A stretch of 64,000 nt of DNA, taken from the NCBI GenBank assembly GCA_963717315.1, contig CAVQWA010000019.1:131-64130 (forward strand). The letters are read 5' to 3'. Position numbers and translations under genes: made by a program. Of the stretch, positions 12,371-37,384 are shown piece by piece; the stretch's first letter is position 1; every line of letters begins with the position of its first letter. Below the pieces are notes generated by a model. That model worked only from the letters and a program-made list of their open reading frames with translations. It had not been told where the DNA came from and searched no databases. Source of the DNA: an uncultured Gemmatimonadales bacterium. Lineage in GTDB: Bacteria; Gemmatimonadota; Gemmatimonadetes; Gemmatimonadales; GWC2-71-9.

Positions 12371-12399
12371 AAACTAGGCCCCGGAGAGGGCAGAATCAA
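12371..12399 (-). promoter_or_regulatory. Candidate promoter for the tRNA cluster
   Basis: On the minus strand: TTGATT (12399-12394), 17 nt, TAGTTT (12376-12371), about 34 nt upstream of tRNA-His. The -35 overlaps the stop codon of the upstream gene. Confidence 0.3.
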
Positions 12400-13061
12400 G
12401 GCCAGAAAGCCGCCGCCAGGGCCGCGGAACGCGGGTCCGAGGGCAGCGACACGCCATCCAGCTCCGCCACCGCCACCACGCCGCGCGCCGCGTTCGCCAC
12501 GAAGAGCGATCGCCCGTGCAGCCCCACCGGGAGGATCTCCCGCTCGGCCAGTCCCCCGACGAGCACGCCGAGCCGCGCCCGCGCCACCCCCGGAAGCACG
12601 CCCAGGCCGAGCGCCGGCGTCGCGAGGCGCGGGCCGTCCCACCAGAACAGGGTCCAGATCGTCGCCTCGGCCACCCGCCCCGCGCCGGTCAGCAGGAGGG
12701 CGTCGTCCGCGCCACACGACCGGGCAGCCGACCTGGCCGCGTCGAAGACCGCCCGCGCCGTGATCTTGTGCGAGTAGCCCGGGTGGACCTCTCCGGCGGT
12801 GACCAGCCGAACCGGGCGCGTGGCCCCGACTGCCCGGTCGCTCGCGCTGACCCCGGCCGCCCCGGTTTCGAGCCGCACCACCCGGTCCGGTCCGGAGGGC
12901 GGCCCGACCCGGCGCGGGAGGGGAATCCCGAGTTCCGCAGCGGAGCGGCGCAACCGCGACAGGTGGAGTGACCAGAGCGGCGCGGTCCCACCGCGCACGC
13001 GGATGGTCTCGAACAGGGACACTTCCAGGCGGCCCGGCGGCTCGGCGGATCGGCCGGTCAC
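12396..13061 (-). CDS. Aminotransferase class IV fold protein, aminodeoxychorismate lyase (PabC)-like
   Basis: 221 aa with GTG start 13059-13061 (GTGA overlap with the upstream stop). LFETIRV..G....L..HL.RL..SA..LG and HKITARAVFDAA...GADDALLL...G.V.E.T..LFW are typical of short class-IV/PabC proteins. Confidence 0.7.
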   Translation of the reverse strand: MTGRSAEPPGRLEVSLFETIRVRGGTAPLWSLHLSRLRRSAAELGIPLPRRVGPPSGPDRVVRLETGAAGVSASDRAVGATRPVRLVTAGEVHPGYSHKITARAVFDAARSAARSCGADDALLLTGAGRVAEATIWTLFWWDGPRLATPALGLGVLPGVARARLGVLVGGLAEREILPVGLHGRSLFVANAARGVVAVAELDGVSLPSDPRSAALAAAFWP

Positions 13062-13984
13062 TCCTCACCGCCTGCCGGGTGGACGGCGCCGGTCACGCGC
13101 ACGGCGTCGGGTTGGCCGCCGCCGCGGCTGTCGAGCCCGGTCTTGACGAGGGTGGCGCCGAGGATCGCCGCGCCGCCCAGGCTGGCCCATGCGCCGGGAC
13201 GCTCTCCGTGGACCAGCCACGACCAGACCGGGTTCAGCACGGGCTCGCAGAGCAGGAGGATCGACGCCTCGAAAGCGGGAACGTGCCGGATGCCGCGCGA
13301 GAGCAGGACGTAGGCCAGGCCGATCTGGATCACGCCGAGGTAGCCGACCGTCAGCCAGTCGGCGGACGATGCGCCGAGCACCGGCAGCGCGCGGGGGAGG
13401 GCCACCGCGAAGGCGATGAGGTTGCCCGCCACCACCGCGGCGATGGAACCGGAGCCATCGTCGGCACCGTCCGCCGTGCTGCCGAGCCACCGGAGGCCGA
13501 TGAGGGTGAAGGCCCAGGTGACGCTCGAGGCCAGCGCGAGGACGTTGCCCCTCACCGGGTCGGGCGCGGTGCGGACCGGCGGCTCGGTGCCCACGAAGAA
13601 GCAGGCGAGGCCCACGCCGATGGCGAGCATGAAGCCGAGGTCGCGGCGGCGGATCGGCTCCTTGAGCAGCAGCGGGCCGAGCAGCAGGAGATAGAGCGGC
13701 GCGGTGGACTGGAGGAAGATCGCGTTGGCGGAGGTGGTGAGCTTGTTCGCCAGGACGAAGAGCAGCAGCGTGGCGGCGTAGGCGACCCCCACCACCGGGG
13801 TGCGCCAGGTCCAGCGCCGCCGGCTCGCCGGCACGAGGAGCAGCACGGCGACGGCCGCGATCCCCGAGCGGAACCCCGCCACCTGCCAGCTGGCGAGGCT
13901 CGTGGCCTTGATGGCGGCGCCCCCGGTGGAGAAGAGCGCGGCGGCGGCGATGAGCGCGAGGCGCGCGCGGGTGGTCTGCTGCAT
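13058..13984 (-). CDS. DMT-superfamily (EamA-type) transporter
   Basis: 308 aa with about 10 hydrophobic helices. ALFSTGGAAIKAT...LLFVLANKLTTSANAIFLQSTAPLY is typical of EamA domains. Confidence 0.85.
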   Translation of the reverse strand: MQQTTRARLALIAAAALFSTGGAAIKATSLASWQVAGFRSGIAAVAVLLLVPASRRRWTWRTPVVGVAYAATLLLFVLANKLTTSANAIFLQSTAPLYLLLLGPLLLKEPIRRRDLGFMLAIGVGLACFFVGTEPPVRTAPDPVRGNVLALASSVTWAFTLIGLRWLGSTADGADDGSGSIAAVVAGNLIAFAVALPRALPVLGASSADWLTVGYLGVIQIGLAYVLLSRGIRHVPAFEASILLLCEPVLNPVWSWLVHGERPGAWASLGGAAILGATLVKTGLDSRGGGQPDAVRVTGAVHPAGGEE

Positions 13985-14002
13985 GCGGGATCAATCTACT
14001 CG

Positions 14003-14082
14003 TTCACCGCGGAGGCGCGGCGGAGGCGCAGAGGGCCGCCGAGAACCACATTCACCGCAGAGGCGCAGGGGACACAGAGAGC
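14003..14082 (+). repeat. REP/BIME-like repeat units
   Basis: TTCACCGCGGAGGCGCGGCGGAGGCGCAGAGGGCCGCCGAGAACCACA followed by TTCACCGCAGAGGCGCAGGGGACACAGAGAGC. Same family as 345-450. Confidence 0.85.
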
Positions 14083-14198
14083 CGCACGAATCATCTGGCC
14101 ACGTCGTTGGCAATTCCGTGGGCCTCACCTCACCCCGACATCCGTGGGGCGGGGTTGGGGAACGAGATCCCGCTGCGGTGCGGCCGGCGAGGTCGGCA

Positions 14199-14272
14199 GT
14201 CCTCTGCGTCCCCTGCGCCTCTGCGGTGACCCCTCCGCGGCCCTCCGCGGCGCTCCGCGCCCCCGCGGTGAG
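14199..14272 (-). repeat. REP/BIME-like repeat units, inverted
   Basis: CCTCTGCGTCCCCTGCGCCTCTGCGGTGACCCCTCCGCGGCCCTCCGCGGCGCTCCGCGCCCCCGCGGTGAG. It ends exactly at the permease stop codon (14273-14275). Confidence 0.85.
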
Positions 14273-15586
14273 TCAGGAGCGCCGCGGCCGGAAGAGGAAG
14301 TAGAACGGCACCCCCGCCAGGATGAGCCCGGTGCCGATGGCCGCGTCGCGGGGAGCGTCGTGGACCGTCTGCAGGACGAGCCAGGCGCAGAAGCCAAGGA
14401 AGACCACCGGCGTCACCGGGTAGCCCCAGACGCGGTACGGGCGCGCCACCCCGGGTCGGGAGCGCCGGAGCACCAGCACCGCGGCCGCGCCCAGGCCGTA
14501 GAAGATGAACGAGCCGTACACCATCCACTGGGTGAGCTGCACGTAGCTGCCGGTGAAGGAAAGCGCCACCGCCCAGACGCCCTGCACCACGAGGGCGGCC
14601 ACCGGCGCGCCGCGCTTGCCGAGCCGGCCGATGACCGTCGGGAGACGGCCCTCCCGGGCCAGGGCGAACGGCACCCGGGCCGCCGAGAGCAGGTTGCCGT
14701 TGAGCGCGCCGAGGGTGGAGACCACGATGACGCAGGCGGTGAGCCGCTCCGCGCCCGGCCCGGCCACGCGGGAAAGCATCTCGCTCGCCACCAGGGGCGA
14801 ACCCGACACCCCGGCGGGGCCGAGCACCCAGAGGTACGCGAGGTTGACCGCCACGTAGAGCAGCACCACGCTGCCCGTCCCCCAGAGCACCGCGCGGGGG
14901 AGGGTCCTGCCGGGGTCTCGTACCTCGCCGCCGACGAGGGAAACGTTGATCCAGCCGTCGCAGGCGAAGAGCGCCCCGAGGAAGGCCACCGCCACCGGGG
15001 CGGCGAATCCGCCCTCGGGAGGCGCGAGCCAGACGGGGTGCAGGTTCGTCGCGCCGCCCCCCGACAGCAGGAACGCCGCCCCGATCAGGCCGACCATCAG
15101 GAGCACCTTGAGACCGGTGAGCACGTTCTGCGCGGTGGCGCCCTCCCGCACCCCGATCGCGTTGAGGAGCGTGAATCCGGCGATCGCGCCGATCCCCACC
15201 CCCGTCCGCACGCCCGCCCCCATCGGGACCAGCACGCCAAGGTACTCGGCGAACACCATCGCGATGGCCGCGAAGCCGACCGTGTTGATGAGGGCGAAGG
15301 CGCTCCATCCGTAGAGGAACCCCCAGAAGGAGCCGAAGGCCTCCCGCAGGTACGCAGTGAGCCCACCCTGTTCGGGAAGCATGGTGCCCAGCTCGGCCAG
15401 GCAGAGGGCGCCCAGCACCGAAACCACGCCCGCGGCGAGCCAGATGGCGATCAGGGGTCCCGTGGCCGGGAGGGCCGCCGCCATCGTCGCGGGGAGAAAG
15501 AAGATGCCGGACCCGATGATGGACCCGGCACAGAGGGCGGTGGTATCGAGCAGTCCGAGCTGGCGCCGGACTTCGCCGCCGCTCAC
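14273..15586 (-). CDS. APC-superfamily amino acid/polyamine permease
   Basis: C-terminal 437 aa of read-through track ORF 14273..16837. GTG 15584-15586 (GTGA overlap with the Rieske stop). LLDTTALCAGSIIGSGIFFLP...LCLAELGTMLPEQGG and about 12 TM helices. Confidence 0.88.
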   Translation of the reverse strand: MSGGEVRRQLGLLDTTALCAGSIIGSGIFFLPATMAAALPATGPLIAIWLAAGVVSVLGALCLAELGTMLPEQGGLTAYLREAFGSFWGFLYGWSAFALINTVGFAAIAMVFAEYLGVLVPMGAGVRTGVGIGAIAGFTLLNAIGVREGATAQNVLTGLKVLLMVGLIGAAFLLSGGGATNLHPVWLAPPEGGFAAPVAVAFLGALFACDGWINVSLVGGEVRDPGRTLPRAVLWGTGSVVLLYVAVNLAYLWVLGPAGVSGSPLVASEMLSRVAGPGAERLTACVIVVSTLGALNGNLLSAARVPFALAREGRLPTVIGRLGKRGAPVAALVVQGVWAVALSFTGSYVQLTQWMVYGSFIFYGLGAAAVLVLRRSRPGVARPYRVWGYPVTPVVFLGFCAWLVLQTVHDAPRDAAIGTGLILAGVPFYFLFRPRRS

Positions 15587-16713
15587 GTCGCCATCCAGTC
15601 GCGATAGGCCGCCTTGAGCATCGCCTGGAAGTGGTGCACCGCCCCCTCGAACTGCACCGAGAACCGTCCCCGGTCGTACGCCCGGGAGCCGAGACCCACC
15701 TGGACCCGCTCGCAGATGCCGGCGTCCTCCTGCTGGACGCGGTCGGCGCAGGCGTGGTCCTCCTCGATCAGGCGCCTCGCCCCCGGGGATTCCACGTCGG
15801 CGTAGTAGTACGCGAACTCCACCCGGCAGCGCTCCGGTCCCCGGGGGAGCACGAGGTTCGTCTGGAGGCGGCCGGGCAGGATGTTGAGCATCGCGTTGGG
15901 GAAGAGGAAGTAGTAGAAGGCCGTCCCCCCCGCTCCGCCGGAGTAGATGTTGTCTTCCGCGCTCAGCGGGCTCACCTGGAGCGAATACCGCTCGTGCACC
16001 TCGGTGCTGTATGACTCGAACTGGTAGAGCTTCATCAATTCCGGGTGCACGTGCGGGACGTGGTACCCCTCGAGGTAGTTGTCCACGTACACCTTCCAGT
16101 TGCACGCGACGTCGTACGACGCCTTCCGCGCGAAGCGGAACTCGGCGAGCCGGACGGGCGCGATCCGCTCCGCGATGCCCGTCACGGCGCGTGCCAGCGG
16201 CTCCGGGTGCTCGGCGAGGTGCACGAAGACGAGGCCTTCCCAGGTGGCGACGCGGAGCGGGACGAGCCCGAAGTCCTTCTTGTCGAAGAGCTCCACCCGG
16301 TCCCACTGGGGCACCCCGCGGAGCGACCCGTCGAGCAGGTAGGTCCAGCCGTGATACTTGCACTGGAGGGCGCCGGCGCAGCCGTCCTCCAGCGCGAGCG
16401 GCCCGCCGCGATGGCGGCAGACGTTGTAGAAGGCCCGGAGCACGCCGTCCCTGCCGCGCACCACCACCACCGGCTCCCCCGCCACCTCCGCCACGAGGTG
16501 GCACCCCGGCGCCGCGAGCCGGCTTTCGTGGCCCACCAGCTGCCAGGTCCGGCCGAGCACGGCGGCCCGGTCGAGCGCCTCGAAGCGGGCCTCGCGGTAC
16601 CACGCCGAGGGGATGGTCCAGGCCCGTTCCACCGGCTCGACGGCGAGTTCCTCCGGCCCGAGGTCGGGGAACGCCTCGGGCGACGGACCCCGGGAGGGCC
16701 CGGTCAGCGGCAT
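15583..16713 (-). CDS. Rieske [2Fe-2S] non-heme-iron oxygenase alpha subunit (choline-monooxygenase-like)
   Basis: C-terminal 376 aa of track ORF 15583..18012, ATG 16711-16713. Rieske motif CRHRGGPL...CKYHGWTY. Iron site NYLEGYHVPHVHP. No signal peptide. Confidence 0.9.
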   Translation of the reverse strand: MPLTGPSRGPSPEAFPDLGPEELAVEPVERAWTIPSAWYREARFEALDRAAVLGRTWQLVGHESRLAAPGCHLVAEVAGEPVVVVRGRDGVLRAFYNVCRHRGGPLALEDGCAGALQCKYHGWTYLLDGSLRGVPQWDRVELFDKKDFGLVPLRVATWEGLVFVHLAEHPEPLARAVTGIAERIAPVRLAEFRFARKASYDVACNWKVYVDNYLEGYHVPHVHPELMKLYQFESYSTEVHERYSLQVSPLSAEDNIYSGGAGGTAFYYFLFPNAMLNILPGRLQTNLVLPRGPERCRVEFAYYYADVESPGARRLIEEDHACADRVQQEDAGICERVQVGLGSRAYDRGRFSVQFEGAVHHFQAMLKAAYRDWMAT

Positions 16714-17951
16714 TCCTCGCCGGCCAGCGTGCCGTGGACCACGACGGCGCACACGTGGCTGGTGTGCTCGAGCGGCGGGCCGTCGAAGAGCGCCAGGTCC
16801 GCCTCCTTGCCCCGCTCGAGCGAGCCGACCCGGGCATCCTGCCCGATGATCCGCGCGGCGTCGATCGTCACCGCGGCGAGCGCCTGCTCGACGCTGAGGC
16901 CGTAGGCCGCGGCCATCGCGGCCTCGAACAGCACCGCGCGGGTCTTGGGGACGTAGCCCTCGTAGCCGCTCTGGAGGGCGAAGGGGATGCCGGCGTCGCG
17001 GAGCTTCGTGGCGGTCTCGAAGGTGGCGTTCTCCATCGTTCCGCCGTGCCGCGCCATCGTCGGGTGCAGGATGACCGGCACCTTCGCCGCCCTGATCTCG
17101 TCGAGCACCAGGTAGGCCTCCGCGGCGCCGTCGAGGACGAGCCGGAAGCCGAACTCCCGCTGCAGCCGGAGGGCCGCCAGGATCTCCCGGGCGGTCTGGG
17201 CGGTGACGAGGGCGGGCAGCTCGCCGGCGAGCACCCGGGCCAGCACCTCCTTCCCCAGGTCGCGCGGCGTGGCGTCCGCCCTCGTCCTGTCGCCGCCCTT
17301 CCCCGTCCGCGCGCGCTTCGCCGCGTACTCCCGTGCCTTCACGAACTCGGCCCGGAGCATCGCGACGCCGCGGGCCCGGGTGCCGGGCCGATTGTTGTAG
17401 TAGCGCCCGACGTCGGGGCCGAGGGTCATCGCCACCATCGTCACCGAGTCCACCAGCGCCTCGCCGACGGTCTCGCCGGTGGTGCGGACCACCATCGTCT
17501 GCCCGCTCACGAGGGCGCCGGGCCCGTGCCCGGTGTGGAGCGTCGTGACCCCGAAGCCCCGCACCCAGGCCACCAGGTCCTCCCGGGCGTTGTAGGCGTC
17601 GAAGGCGCGGAGCTCGGGCTGGATCGGGTTCGAGCGCTCGAGCTGGTCCTGGTCGTGCGGCTGGTTGAGCATCCCCGAGAGCCCGACCACGGTGTGCGCG
17701 TCCACCAGCCCCGGAGTGACGTACTCCGCCGCCAGGAGCCGGTAGCCCTCGGGCACCCGCACCTCGGTGGCGGGGCCGACCCGGTCGATCCGGCCGTCCC
17801 GCCCCACGAGCACCACGCCGTCCTGGATCGGCGTGCCGGCCATCGTGTAGACCGTCCCGCCCCGCACGGCGAGCTGGGCCGCGGCGGGGGCGGGCGACGC
17901 CAGGCCGGCGGAGGTGGCCGCGAGCGCGGCTGCGAGAGTCGTGGCGCGCAT
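16704..17951 (-). CDS. Amidohydrolase-superfamily protein, secreted, metal ligands degenerate
   Basis: C-terminal 415 aa of track ORF 16704..18443, ATG 17949-17951. Signal peptide ending APAAAQ. Paralogous to the next gene (shared LRLQREFGFRLVL) but has VDAHTVVG instead of HxH and lacks the aligned His/Asp clusters. Confidence 0.85.
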   Translation of the reverse strand: MRATTLAAALAATSAGLASPAPAAAQLAVRGGTVYTMAGTPIQDGVVLVGRDGRIDRVGPATEVRVPEGYRLLAAEYVTPGLVDAHTVVGLSGMLNQPHDQDQLERSNPIQPELRAFDAYNAREDLVAWVRGFGVTTLHTGHGPGALVSGQTMVVRTTGETVGEALVDSVTMVAMTLGPDVGRYYNNRPGTRARGVAMLRAEFVKAREYAAKRARTGKGGDRTRADATPRDLGKEVLARVLAGELPALVTAQTAREILAALRLQREFGFRLVLDGAAEAYLVLDEIRAAKVPVILHPTMARHGGTMENATFETATKLRDAGIPFALQSGYEGYVPKTRAVLFEAAMAAAYGLSVEQALAAVTIDAARIIGQDARVGSLERGKEADLALFDGPPLEHTSHVCAVVVHGTLAGEECR

Positions 17952-19267
17952 CAGTGGCCCTCCATCCCCTCGTGGTGGTCGAACGGCGCATCGCGCACCG
18001 CCCGGTACCCACCGACGGCGAACGGCCGGTCGGCGGGATCCGTCAGGTCGAACACCTTCCGCCCCTCGACCCAGGCCTGCTCCACGTGGGTGGCGAGGGC
18101 GAAGGGATCGCCCGAGAGGACGACGAAGTCCGCGTCCTTGCCGGGCTCGAGGCTGCCCACCCGGTCCGCGAGGTCGAGCATCCGGGCCCCGGCCATCGTG
18201 AGCGCATACAGCGCCTGCTCGGGCTTCATCCCGGCGCGGACGGCGAGCGCTGCCGAGCGGAGGAAGAGGCGCGAGTCGGTGATCCCGTCGTCGGTATGGA
18301 AGCCGACCAGCACGCCGGCCTCGTCCAGGATCGCCCCGGTGCGCAGGCTCAGGTCCACCGCCTCGAGCTTCCCGCCCGGGGCGTCGATCACGACCACGGA
18401 GGCGGGCACGCCGGCGGCGGCGATCTCGCGGGCCACCTTCCACCCCTCGCTCACGTGGTGGAGCACCAGCCGGAACCCGAACTCCCGCTGCAGCCGGAGC
18501 ACGGTGAGGATGTCGTCGTGGCGGTGCGTGTGGTGATGCACCATCCGCTTCCCGTCGAGCGCCTCGACCAGGATCTCGAGCTCGAGGTCGCGCTCGGGCC
18601 GCCTGGTCGAGTCCGCCCCGGCGGCACGCAGCTTCTCGCGGTACTCGACCGCCTTGACGAACCGCTCGCGCACCATCGCCGCCGACTTGGCCCGGGTGCC
18701 GGGCCAGGGGCTCTCGCCGCGCGGGTTGGTGCCGTTGGCCATCTTGAGCCCGCCGCAGATCTCGGTGAGCACGTCGTGGCAGTAGAGCAGGTCGGTGATC
18801 GTGCGGCCCCGGCGGAGCTTCAGGTAGGCGGTCTGGCCGCTCATCAGGTGGCCGGAGCCGGGCATCACGTTCACCGTGGTGATGCCGCCGGCGAGCGCCT
18901 TCCGGAAGCTGTCGCTCGTCGGGTCGATCGCGTCCAGGATCCGGATGTCCCCCTGGATCGGGTCGGAACGATCGCCGCCGTCGCCGCCCCCGATGTGGGA
19001 GTGGGTGTCCACCAGGCCGGGGAGGACGACCTTGCCGGTCACGTCAACCACCTCGGCCCCGTCGGGCACGGCCACGGCGCCCTCGGCGCCCACCGCGACG
19101 ATCTTCCCGCCGCGCGTGACCAGCACGCCGCGCTCGATCGGCGGCCCGGCGACGGGCAGGATGCGGGCGCCACGGACCACGAGCGGGCGCTCCTGGGCGG
19201 ATGCTGCGGCGGGCAGGACCAGCGCGCAGGCGAGCGCGGCGCGGGCCGCACGAACGGCGGTCAGCAT
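17951..19267 (-). CDS. Amidohydrolase-superfamily metallohydrolase, secreted (intact ligand set)
   Basis: C-terminal 438 aa of track ORF 17951..19495, ATG 19265-19267. Signal peptide LVLPAAASAQ. LVDTHSHIGG (HxH), MVHHHTHRHDD, LVLHHVSEG, GFHTDDG, GKDADFVVL. Confidence 0.88.
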   Translation of the reverse strand: MLTAVRAARAALACALVLPAAASAQERPLVVRGARILPVAGPPIERGVLVTRGGKIVAVGAEGAVAVPDGAEVVDVTGKVVLPGLVDTHSHIGGGDGGDRSDPIQGDIRILDAIDPTSDSFRKALAGGITTVNVMPGSGHLMSGQTAYLKLRRGRTITDLLYCHDVLTEICGGLKMANGTNPRGESPWPGTRAKSAAMVRERFVKAVEYREKLRAAGADSTRRPERDLELEILVEALDGKRMVHHHTHRHDDILTVLRLQREFGFRLVLHHVSEGWKVAREIAAAGVPASVVVIDAPGGKLEAVDLSLRTGAILDEAGVLVGFHTDDGITDSRLFLRSAALAVRAGMKPEQALYALTMAGARMLDLADRVGSLEPGKDADFVVLSGDPFALATHVEQAWVEGRKVFDLTDPADRPFAVGGYRAVRDAPFDHHEGMEGH

Positions 19268-19397: not shown

Positions 19398-20582
19398 ATG
19401 CCGACCGCCCTCCTGCACGACCCCACGCTGGTGTTCGCGTACCTCGCCGCCGTGATCGGGGTGATCTTCTGGCTCAGCGGACTGCCCGCGTTCAAGGGCT
19501 GGTTCGACCGGGTGCCCCCCCTGGTGCACTGCTACTTCGTGCCCACCCTCTCCTCCGCGTTCGGGATCACGCCCCTCCAGTCGCCCGTGTACGACTGGGT
19601 GTCGCGATTCCTGCTGCCGCTCTGCCTCCTGCTCCTGATGGTGGCAGTGGACCTCCCCGCCATCCTGAAGGTCGGCCGCACCGCGCTCCTGATGATGCTG
19701 GCGGGCACGCTCGGGATCATCATCGGCGGGCCGGTGGCGTTCCTGATCTTCAAGGGGGCCCTGCCGCCGGACGCGTGGAAGGCGTTCGCGGCGCTCTCGG
19801 GAAGCTGGATCGGCGGCAGCGCCAACTTCGTGGCGATCGCGGAGAGCGTCGGCGCCCCCGACGCGGTGCTCGGCCCGGCGATCGTCGTGGACACCGTCGT
19901 CGGCTACGGCTGGATGGCGATCCTGCTGGCGCTCTCGGCCTGGCAGCTCCGCTTCGACACCGCGATCGGTGCCCGGCGCGAGGCGTTCGAGGAGGCCAGC
20001 CGGCACCTGAGCGAGCTGCAGGCGCACAAGCGGCCGACGACGCTGCGTGACCTCCTGATCCTGGTGGCGCTCGGGTTCGGCGGCGCCGCCGTCTCGGTGG
20101 TCATCGGCGACCGGCTGCCGGCCATCGGCCACCCGACGATCATCAGCAGCGCCACGTGGGCGGTGCTCGTGGCGGTCACCGCCGGCATCGCGCTCTCCTT
20201 CACCCCGGTGCGGCGCCTCGAGGAGGTCGGCGCGTCGAACACGGGGTACGCGGCCCTCTACCTCATCATCGCGAGCATCGGGGCCAGGGCGGACCTGCGG
20301 GCCGTGCTCGAGACGCCGGCGTTCCTCGGTGCGGGCATCGTGTGGATCGCGATTCACGTGGCGATCCTCTTCCTCGCCGCGCGGCTGCTGCGGGCCCCAC
20401 TCTTCTTCGTCGCCGTGGGCTCGATGGCGAACATCGGGGGCGCCGCCTCCGCGCCGGTGGTGGCGGCCGCCTACCACCCCGCAATGGCCCCGGTGGGCCT
20501 CCTGCTCGGCGTGTCGGGGTACATCCTGGGCATCTACGGCGGGCTGGCCTGCGCCTGGCTGCTCGGGCTCGCGGCGGGGTGA
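19398..20582 (+). CDS. DUF819-family integral membrane protein
   Basis: C-terminal 394 aa of track ORF 18876..20582, ATG 19398. Polytopic. LSGSWIGGSANFVAI and GSMANIGGAASAPVVAAAY are the paired DUF819 signatures. Confidence 0.8.
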   Translation: MPTALLHDPTLVFAYLAAVIGVIFWLSGLPAFKGWFDRVPPLVHCYFVPTLSSAFGITPLQSPVYDWVSRFLLPLCLLLLMVAVDLPAILKVGRTALLMMLAGTLGIIIGGPVAFLIFKGALPPDAWKAFAALSGSWIGGSANFVAIAESVGAPDAVLGPAIVVDTVVGYGWMAILLALSAWQLRFDTAIGARREAFEEASRHLSELQAHKRPTTLRDLLILVALGFGGAAVSVVIGDRLPAIGHPTIISSATWAVLVAVTAGIALSFTPVRRLEEVGASNTGYAALYLIIASIGARADLRAVLETPAFLGAGIVWIAIHVAILFLAARLLRAPLFFVAVGSMANIGGAASAPVVAAAYHPAMAPVGLLLGVSGYILGIYGGLACAWLLGLAAG

Positions 20583-37316: not shown

Positions 37317-37384
37317 TTCCCTGCGTCCCCTGCGCCGCTGCGGTGAATGCAGTTCTCCGCGGCCCTACGCGCCTCCGCGGTGAA
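37317..37384 (-). repeat. REP/BIME-like repeat units (solo, inverted orientation)
   Basis: TTCCCTGCGTCCCCTGCGCCGCTGCGGTGAATGCAGTTCTCCGCGGCCCTACGCGCCTCCGCGGTGAA. It ends exactly at the stop codon 37385-37387 of the next gene. Confidence 0.85.

Follow-up and report, generated by a model that had tools for sequence, protein, structure and literature searches.

A stretch of 64,000 nucleotides (nt) from contig CAVQWA010000019.1 (positions 131 to 64,130) of an uncultured Gemmatimonadales bacterium, referred to here as the window, carries four tightly overlapping genes on its minus strand. They encode two amidohydrolase-fold proteins (AH1 and AH2), a Rieske oxygenase (RO) and a permease of the APC type (APC). 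The contig belongs to a 92%-complete, 2.7-Mb metagenome-assembled genome (MAG) of 73% GC content. An earlier note, made from the DNA sequence alone, had suggested that these genes form a single compartmentalised route, in which a substrate is hydrolysed in the periplasm, taken up and then oxygenated. Instead, it is probable that the operon is composite, consisting of two independent two-gene modules, AH1+AH2 and RO+APC, which are joined only in close relatives of this organism. The four genes are as follows:

17951-19267, minus strand: AH1, predicted exported amidohydrolase, COG1228 / 3OOQ-like (Pfam Amidohydro_1, E 3.7e-20)
16704-17951, minus strand: AH2, predicted exported amidohydrolase-fold paralogue, metal ligands lost (Pfam Amidohydro_1/3)
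15583-16713, minus strand: RO, predicted alpha-only Rieske non-haem-iron monooxygenase of group Va (Pfam Rieske + Ring_hydroxyl_A)
14273-15586, minus strand: APC, LAT/BasC-like permease or exchanger (Pfam AA_permease_2, E 2.7e-60, residues 10-424)

Domains were called with Pfam profiles, equivalog assignments were tested against NCBIfam cut-offs, and matches in the PDB were found by sequence. The profiles agree with the gene identities first proposed, namely two amidohydrolase folds, a Rieske oxygenase and an APC permease, and the open reading frames (ORFs), translations and junction sequences confirm that the four genes are joined by overlaps of 1, 10 and 4 nt. These are TGATG between AH1 and AH2 (at 17951), ATGCCGCTGA between AH2 and RO (16704-16713) and GTGA between RO and APC (15583-15586). 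The ATG of AH1 has GGAG upstream. Scans of the operon for consensus promoters and terminators returned weak sites only, with no convincing internal promoter or terminator, and the four genes are presumably co-transcribed. None of the four proteins reaches the cut-off of an NCBIfam equivalog.

The closest structure to both AH1 and AH2 is 3OOQ from Thermotoga maritima (E 1.2e-66 and 2.1e-45, respectively), and the two proteins are 37% identical to one another. In AH1 the binuclear metal ligands seen in the 3OOQ alignment (HxH, Lys, His, His and Asp) are intact and lie in the motifs DTHSHIG, GLKMA, HTHRH, LHHVS and HTDD. From this ligand set AH1 is predicted to be a catalytically competent amidohydrolase. 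The counterparts in AH2 are DAHTVVG, TAQTA, LDGAA and GYEGY, and the Lys is missing; the second His of HxH has become Val (H-T-V), the beta5 His is replaced by Gln and the beta6 His by Gly, and no Asp is left at beta8. These losses are shared by the 14 full-length orthologues from other genomes that were aligned (64-73% identical). As its metal ligands are gone, AH2 does not look like a competent amidohydrolase and is probably a non-catalytic partner, or pseudoenzyme, of AH1. Thus, the earlier description of two amidohydrolases holds for the fold of both proteins, whilst catalytic competence is predicted for AH1 and not for AH2. Assignment of either protein to the Caulobacter-type Xaa-Pro dipeptidases (NF051886) was rejected, with scores of 82.3 bits for AH1 and 48.5 bits for AH2 against a cut-off of 500.

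Both proteins had also been credited with signal peptides, and this is upheld by a rule-based reading in which a leader opens with basic residues, continues with a hydrophobic core and ends in an A-x-A site followed by Q just ahead of the mature domain. Compared with the leaderless 3OOQ, AH1, AH2 and their orthologues have an N-terminal extension of 25-40 residues with the features of a Sec-type leader, and the A-x-A site and its Q sit directly before the residue aligned with the start of 3OOQ. In AH1 the leader up to the cleavage point reads MLTAVRAARAALACALVLPAAASA and the mature protein would begin with QERP.

The order of the two genes is also conserved. AH1 lies directly upstream of AH2, often with an overlap of 1-4 nt, at the fetched orthologue loci at which both genes were recovered; at two AH2 orthologue loci the AH1 gene was not recovered, owing to a contig end or to the gene call. 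Ten more distant tandem pairs in Gemmatimonadota (L127-L136) likewise combine an intact upstream gene with a ligand-less downstream gene, and the arrangement is seen in three further sequence subclades beyond the AH2 orthologue loci (L026-L039). This recurrence suggests an old partnership of enzyme and pseudoenzyme. An exported tandem of this kind raises the possibility that an enzyme and a pseudoenzyme form a heteromer, in a superfamily whose members are generally regarded as homo-oligomers; a literature search on amidohydrolase pseudoenzyme heteromers found nothing relevant.

The second module begins with RO. Its N-terminus, MPLTGPSRGPSPEAF, contains no hydrophobic stretch, in keeping with the proposal that the oxygenase has no signal peptide. 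RO matches the carnitine monooxygenase CntA of Acinetobacter baumannii (6y8j) with an E of 7e-53 over residues 19-351 (HMMER). The ligands of the Rieske cluster are kept (C99, H101, C118 and H121, equivalent to CntA C86, H88, C106 and H109), as are those of the iron site and the bridging Glu (H218, H223, D330 and E215, equivalent to H208, H213, D323 and E205). Group Va is defined by an aromatic residue at CntA position 203, Tyr in CntA itself, which touches the trimethylammonium group in a pi-cation contact; group Vb has Asn there (PMC7948474). RO retains this Tyr as Y213, within the motif DNYLEGYH. Across 16 aligned homologues DNYLEGYH is the majority consensus and N212 and L214 are invariant, while Y213 is absent from both the invariant and the ≥90% lists. 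The CntA pocket residues Y225, F258 and N270 are also kept, as Y235, F266 and N277. By these residues RO is a predicted cytoplasmic monooxygenase of group Va, similar to CntA and choline monooxygenase (CMO); homologues of RO carry the label ‘choline monooxygenase’ at the Joint Genome Institute (JGI). Two narrower assignments were rejected: the carnitine monooxygenase CntAB proper, as pocket residues and a Cys pair differ and the 92%-complete genome has no CntB of the Fer2 + FNR type, and the glycine betaine monooxygenase GbcA (NF058607), for which RO scores 155.7 bits, over its N-terminal half only, against a cut-off of 670. A literature search found no paper on a CMO-like Rieske protein in Gemmatimonadetes.

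No reductase or ferredoxin partner had been noticed near RO, and wider searches bear this out. A profile search of the contig gave no match to Fer2, Fer4, Fer4_15 or an FNR-type NAD_binding_1 domain, and the whole MAG gave no match to PF00175. Matches to Fer2 in the MAG are confined to NuoG and SdhB, and its ferredoxin candidates are generic 4Fe-4S proteins only, encoded on other contigs. As a separate observation, RO is the sole protein with a Pfam Rieske domain found in this MAG, in which no Rieske subunit of the cytochrome bc1/b6f type was detected.

APC was correctly recognised as an amino-acid-type permease. AA_permease_2 covers its full length, its best structure match is BasC (6f2g; E 1e-61 over residues 16-433) and it is also close to the SLC7 light chains. 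Membership of the LAT subfamily TIGR00911 was rejected at 224.2 bits against a cut-off of 701.8.

The link between RO and APC was examined in a survey of about 100 RO loci (104 in total), among them 20 fetched loci from the phylum and 80 further loci from several phyla. Adjacency was counted twice, by homology-supported ORF clustering and by strict tblastn; the latter count was added because clustering, in the high-GC window, fused AH2 to RO and missed APC. By these two measures an APC gene lies directly downstream of RO at 50 (clustering) or 36 (strict tblastn) of the loci. On the RO tree the adjacency occurs in three subclades of Gemmatimonadota, in Bacteroidota/Ignavibacteriota and in Xanthomonadales (29 of 37 loci). 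In each of five genomes tested, the best match to the window APC is the copy adjacent to RO (336-374 bits, against no more than 268 for paralogues), and the RO-linked permeases thus appear to be orthologous. On gene order and homology, RO-APC is a portable, widely conserved two-gene cassette, and this wide conservation supports the functional pairing of oxygenase and permease that was first suggested from the window.

The linkage of this cassette to the amidohydrolases is far more restricted. Among 300 other genomes of the phylum, an RO orthologue (defined by ≥60% identity) is present in 27 and an AH2 orthologue in 14, with partial AH2 orthologues in 2 more; the two are adjacent in none of the 300, and the three genomes that carry both modules (G264, G147 and G223) have them on different contigs. 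No AH homologue was found near RO at the 20 phylum loci, and among the 80 wider loci there was one case, an Armatimonadota contig with a divergent AH pair 170 nt from RO. The complete layout, its overlaps and flanks included, is confined to close relatives (AH2 80-89% or RO 84-85% identical), where six or more independent contigs, from metagenomes or MAGs, retain it. It is absent from locus L139, described below, and from the other RO loci. Thus, the four genes are not co-conserved beyond close relatives, which is the outcome that had been named beforehand as refuting a common pathway, and a reading of all four as an integrated pathway is weakly supported.

The genes that flank the operon point to how the two modules may have come together. 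These features are:

13985-14272, no strand: REP-like (repetitive extragenic palindromic) spacer of 288 nt, between APC and EamA
13058-13984, minus strand: EamA-family transporter (Pfam EamA)
12396-13061, minus strand: class IV aminotransferase-fold protein, PabC-like, with a 4-nt overlap with EamA (Pfam Aminotran_4)
19398-20582, plus strand: DUF819 membrane protein, divergent from AH1 (Pfam DUF819, E 1.6e-87)

In the window, EamA and Aminotran_4 come after APC, past the 288-nt spacer, and on the other side a 130-nt intergenic region separates AH1 from the divergent DUF819 gene, a neighbour that is retained at L040, L041 and L137-L139. L137 and L138, whose AH2 proteins are 89% and 85% identical to that of the window, share the full four-gene layout and its flanks. 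L139 (AH2 76% identical) has an upstream flank equal to the nine genes of the window, including DinB, RidA, rhodanese, YceI, DUF525, GNAT, DUF4142 and the divergent DUF819 gene, followed by AH1 and AH2; there, however, RO-APC is absent and EamA starts 4 nt after the end of AH2. The genus g7 has the order AH1, AH2, EamA, Aminotran_4, cleanly in L035 and with one doubtful ORF added by the gene caller in L030 and L032, and none of its 10 genomes contains an RO orthologue. Since AH2 abuts EamA in both L139 and g7, EamA appears to be the ancestral downstream neighbour of AH2, and the simplest reading is that RO-APC and the spacer were inserted between the two, into an older AH1-AH2-EamA-Aminotran_4 operon.

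The spacer itself is built of a dispersed, GC-rich palindromic repeat (TCACCGCAGAGGCGCAGGGGAC) and includes an inverted repeat with 28-nt arms (14052-14079 and 14202-14229) that lie 122 nt apart. It yields 87 BLAST pieces across many contigs of the genome, and the repeat also occurs in the window at 37317-37384 and at about 388-681. The gap at the same position is 282 nt in L137, where length alone was compared, and 4 nt in L139. The spacer probably marks where the inserted cassette ends on its downstream side.

Elsewhere the neighbours of RO vary, and include Peptidase_S58, PLP (pyridoxal phosphate) decarboxylase, ADI/DDAH-like, AroE-like and PabB/PabC-like genes and a TonB receptor. At L005 (with a 4-nt overlap), L006, L018, L045, L047 and L054, RO has a gene for a group II PLP decarboxylase upstream; at L045 an unannotated product of 498 amino acids is encoded between the two. 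At L044 and L046 RO overlaps by 4 nt with a downstream gene for an ADI/DDAH-like protein of about 265 amino acids. Both contexts suggest a role in the metabolism of amines or guanidino amino acids. Two of the surveyed contigs are probably mis-binned or contaminants: L047, labelled Bacillota MAG294, resembles Gemmatimonadales contigs such as L006 and L018 in its RO and gene order, and the RO of L088, labelled Eremiobacteraeota, groups within the Dyella clade, with a branch length of 0.05.

Taken with the insertion, the composite reading allows a tentative account of the locus. AH1 as catalytic and AH2 as non-catalytic subunit would form a periplasmic heteromer that, judging from the closest relatives of known function, might cleave a C-terminal amide or peptide bond by hydrolysis. 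Separately, the BasC/LAT-type permease would import an amino-acid-like compound, and RO would hydroxylate this compound beside a positively charged ammonium group, probably an alkylated one, with C-N cleavage or demethylation as the outcome. Electrons for RO would come from a non-dedicated ferredoxin encoded elsewhere in the genome. RO-APC and the spacer would have been inserted in a recent ancestor of this genus-level lineage, and the cassette would now be translationally coupled to AH2. The four-gene overlap is then ordinary operon packaging and does not define a new four-step pathway.

Several points weigh against this account. CntA residues Y295, Y315 and F319 correspond to F300, H320 and V326 in RO (Y295F, Y315H and F319V), and the CntA Cys206/Cys209 pair corresponds to G216 and V219; the CntA residues of the carnitine pocket and the Cys pair are those of PMC10952381. 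Bacterial CMO-like proteins were without biochemical characterisation as of PMC6157903, and because that paper knows no substrate for any of them the chemistry of RO is assigned by analogy only. That AH1 and AH2 form a heteromer is something we infer. The choice between insertion in the window lineage and loss in L139 and g7 is polarised by parsimony over two outgroups only. Finally, overlaps of 10 and 4 nt indicate that the cassette is well integrated, possibly because its co-expression with the AH pair has been selected for.

This last point is where the strongest competing explanation begins. It holds that, in this lineage, the genes do form one compartmentalised route, in which periplasmic AH1/AH2 acts on an amide or peptide to free an amino-acid-like product, which enters the cell through APC and is then oxidised or demethylated by RO, the insertion having been selected as the completion of a pathway. 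The tight start/stop overlaps are as such a route would have them, and the layout has been kept in the independent contigs of the close relatives. Moreover, a different secreted hydrolase takes a comparable place in another Gemmatimonadota lineage, where a Peptidase_S58/DmpA-like gene (leader MKLALLAVCLFVVPGSAAQ) precedes RO-APC, with an overlap, at 7-8 loci, and the Armatimonadota contig again places an AH pair next to RO. However, the four genes part company beyond close relatives, each module occurs alone in many genomes, and L139 and g7 keep AH1-AH2 with no RO nearby. Secreted amidohydrolases and peptidases also number in the dozens in Gemmatimonadota genomes (13-130 candidates each at a first look), so that adjacency of an AH gene and RO could easily arise by chance. 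The single route is therefore regarded as unlikely, although it keeps a real share of the probability.

A still less probable proposal is that RO-APC is a widespread undescribed system that imports an alpha-amino acid with a methylated or quaternary ammonium group and then cleaves or demethylates it oxidatively by way of a general ferredoxin, with the AH heteromer feeding the cassette in this lineage. Its substrates could be, for example, N-epsilon-trimethyl-lysine or methyl-arginine released by secreted peptidases. If this were true, trimethylamine or formaldehyde would have a new aerobic source in RO-APC.

The synteny of RO with genes of the Pab and AroE type may be functional or may merely reflect a conserved position. 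PabB-PabC-like genes come directly after RO in four loci of one Gemmatimonadales genus (L007, L008, L010 and L064); in L007 and L010 the homologues of the window Aminotran_4 come after a chorismate-binding PabB-like gene, called from sequence reading, that adjoins RO. In five Rhodothermales loci (L068, L070, L075, L079 and L081) RO lies directly downstream of a shikimate-dehydrogenase-like (AroE-like) gene. That RO might act on an aromatic chorismate-derived compound of the p-aminobenzoate type and be no quaternary-amine enzyme at all, with APC taking up an aromatic amino acid, would fit these contexts, the PabC-like gene two genes downstream in the window and the suggestion of possible aromatic substrates for plant proteins of the CMO1 type (PMC6157903), but it is very improbable, as RO keeps the group Va pi-cation Tyr and Y235, F266 and N277 of the CntA pocket (PMC7948474), its decarboxylase, ADI/DDAH-like and peptidase contexts indicate amines and amino acids, and the PabC-like gene is a shared downstream anchor of the AH pair even where RO is missing, so that its synteny may be no more than positional.

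The composite reading has consequences for both modules. The negative result on the four-gene pathway spares the pursuit of a pathway that probably does not exist. RO-APC stands out as a conserved multi-phylum unit within the biochemically uncharacterised ‘bacterial CMO-like’ branch of the quaternary-amine Rieske oxygenases. Its carriers include soil Gemmatimonadota, Bacteroidota/Ignavibacteriota and Xanthomonadales, among them cultured Dyella, Rhodanobacter and Frateuria, and because cultured Xanthomonadales carry the cassette its substrate can be tested genetically. As relatives in the enzyme class make trimethylamine or demethylate osmolytes, the substrate would bear on soil nitrogen and one-carbon (C1) cycling.

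Each part of the operon resembles a known system and departs from it. AH1 aligns with 3OOQ from end to end and shares its full set of metal ligands, within a comparison group of COG1228 carboxypeptidase/prolidase-type amidohydrolases that also contains Cc2672, Sgx9260b/c and the ochratoxin amidohydrolase 8IHQ; its similarity to Cc2672 and 8IHQ is partial and weaker. Whereas 3OOQ is leaderless and has no assigned function, AH1 and AH2 are predicted to be exported and are encoded in an apparently obligatory tandem, and AH2 lacks a metal site. RO shares, over nearly its full length, the alpha-only Rieske + Ring_hydroxyl_A architecture of group Va, which includes CntA, plant choline monooxygenase and OxyBAC. 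Unlike CntA, it has no adjoining CntB-type reductase and no Cys pair, and is paired with an APC/LAT permease. That permease shares the APC fold with BasC, a bacterial alanine-serine-cysteine exchanger, and with the LAT light chains of SLC7 but, unlike BasC, is encoded in linkage with a Rieske oxygenase.

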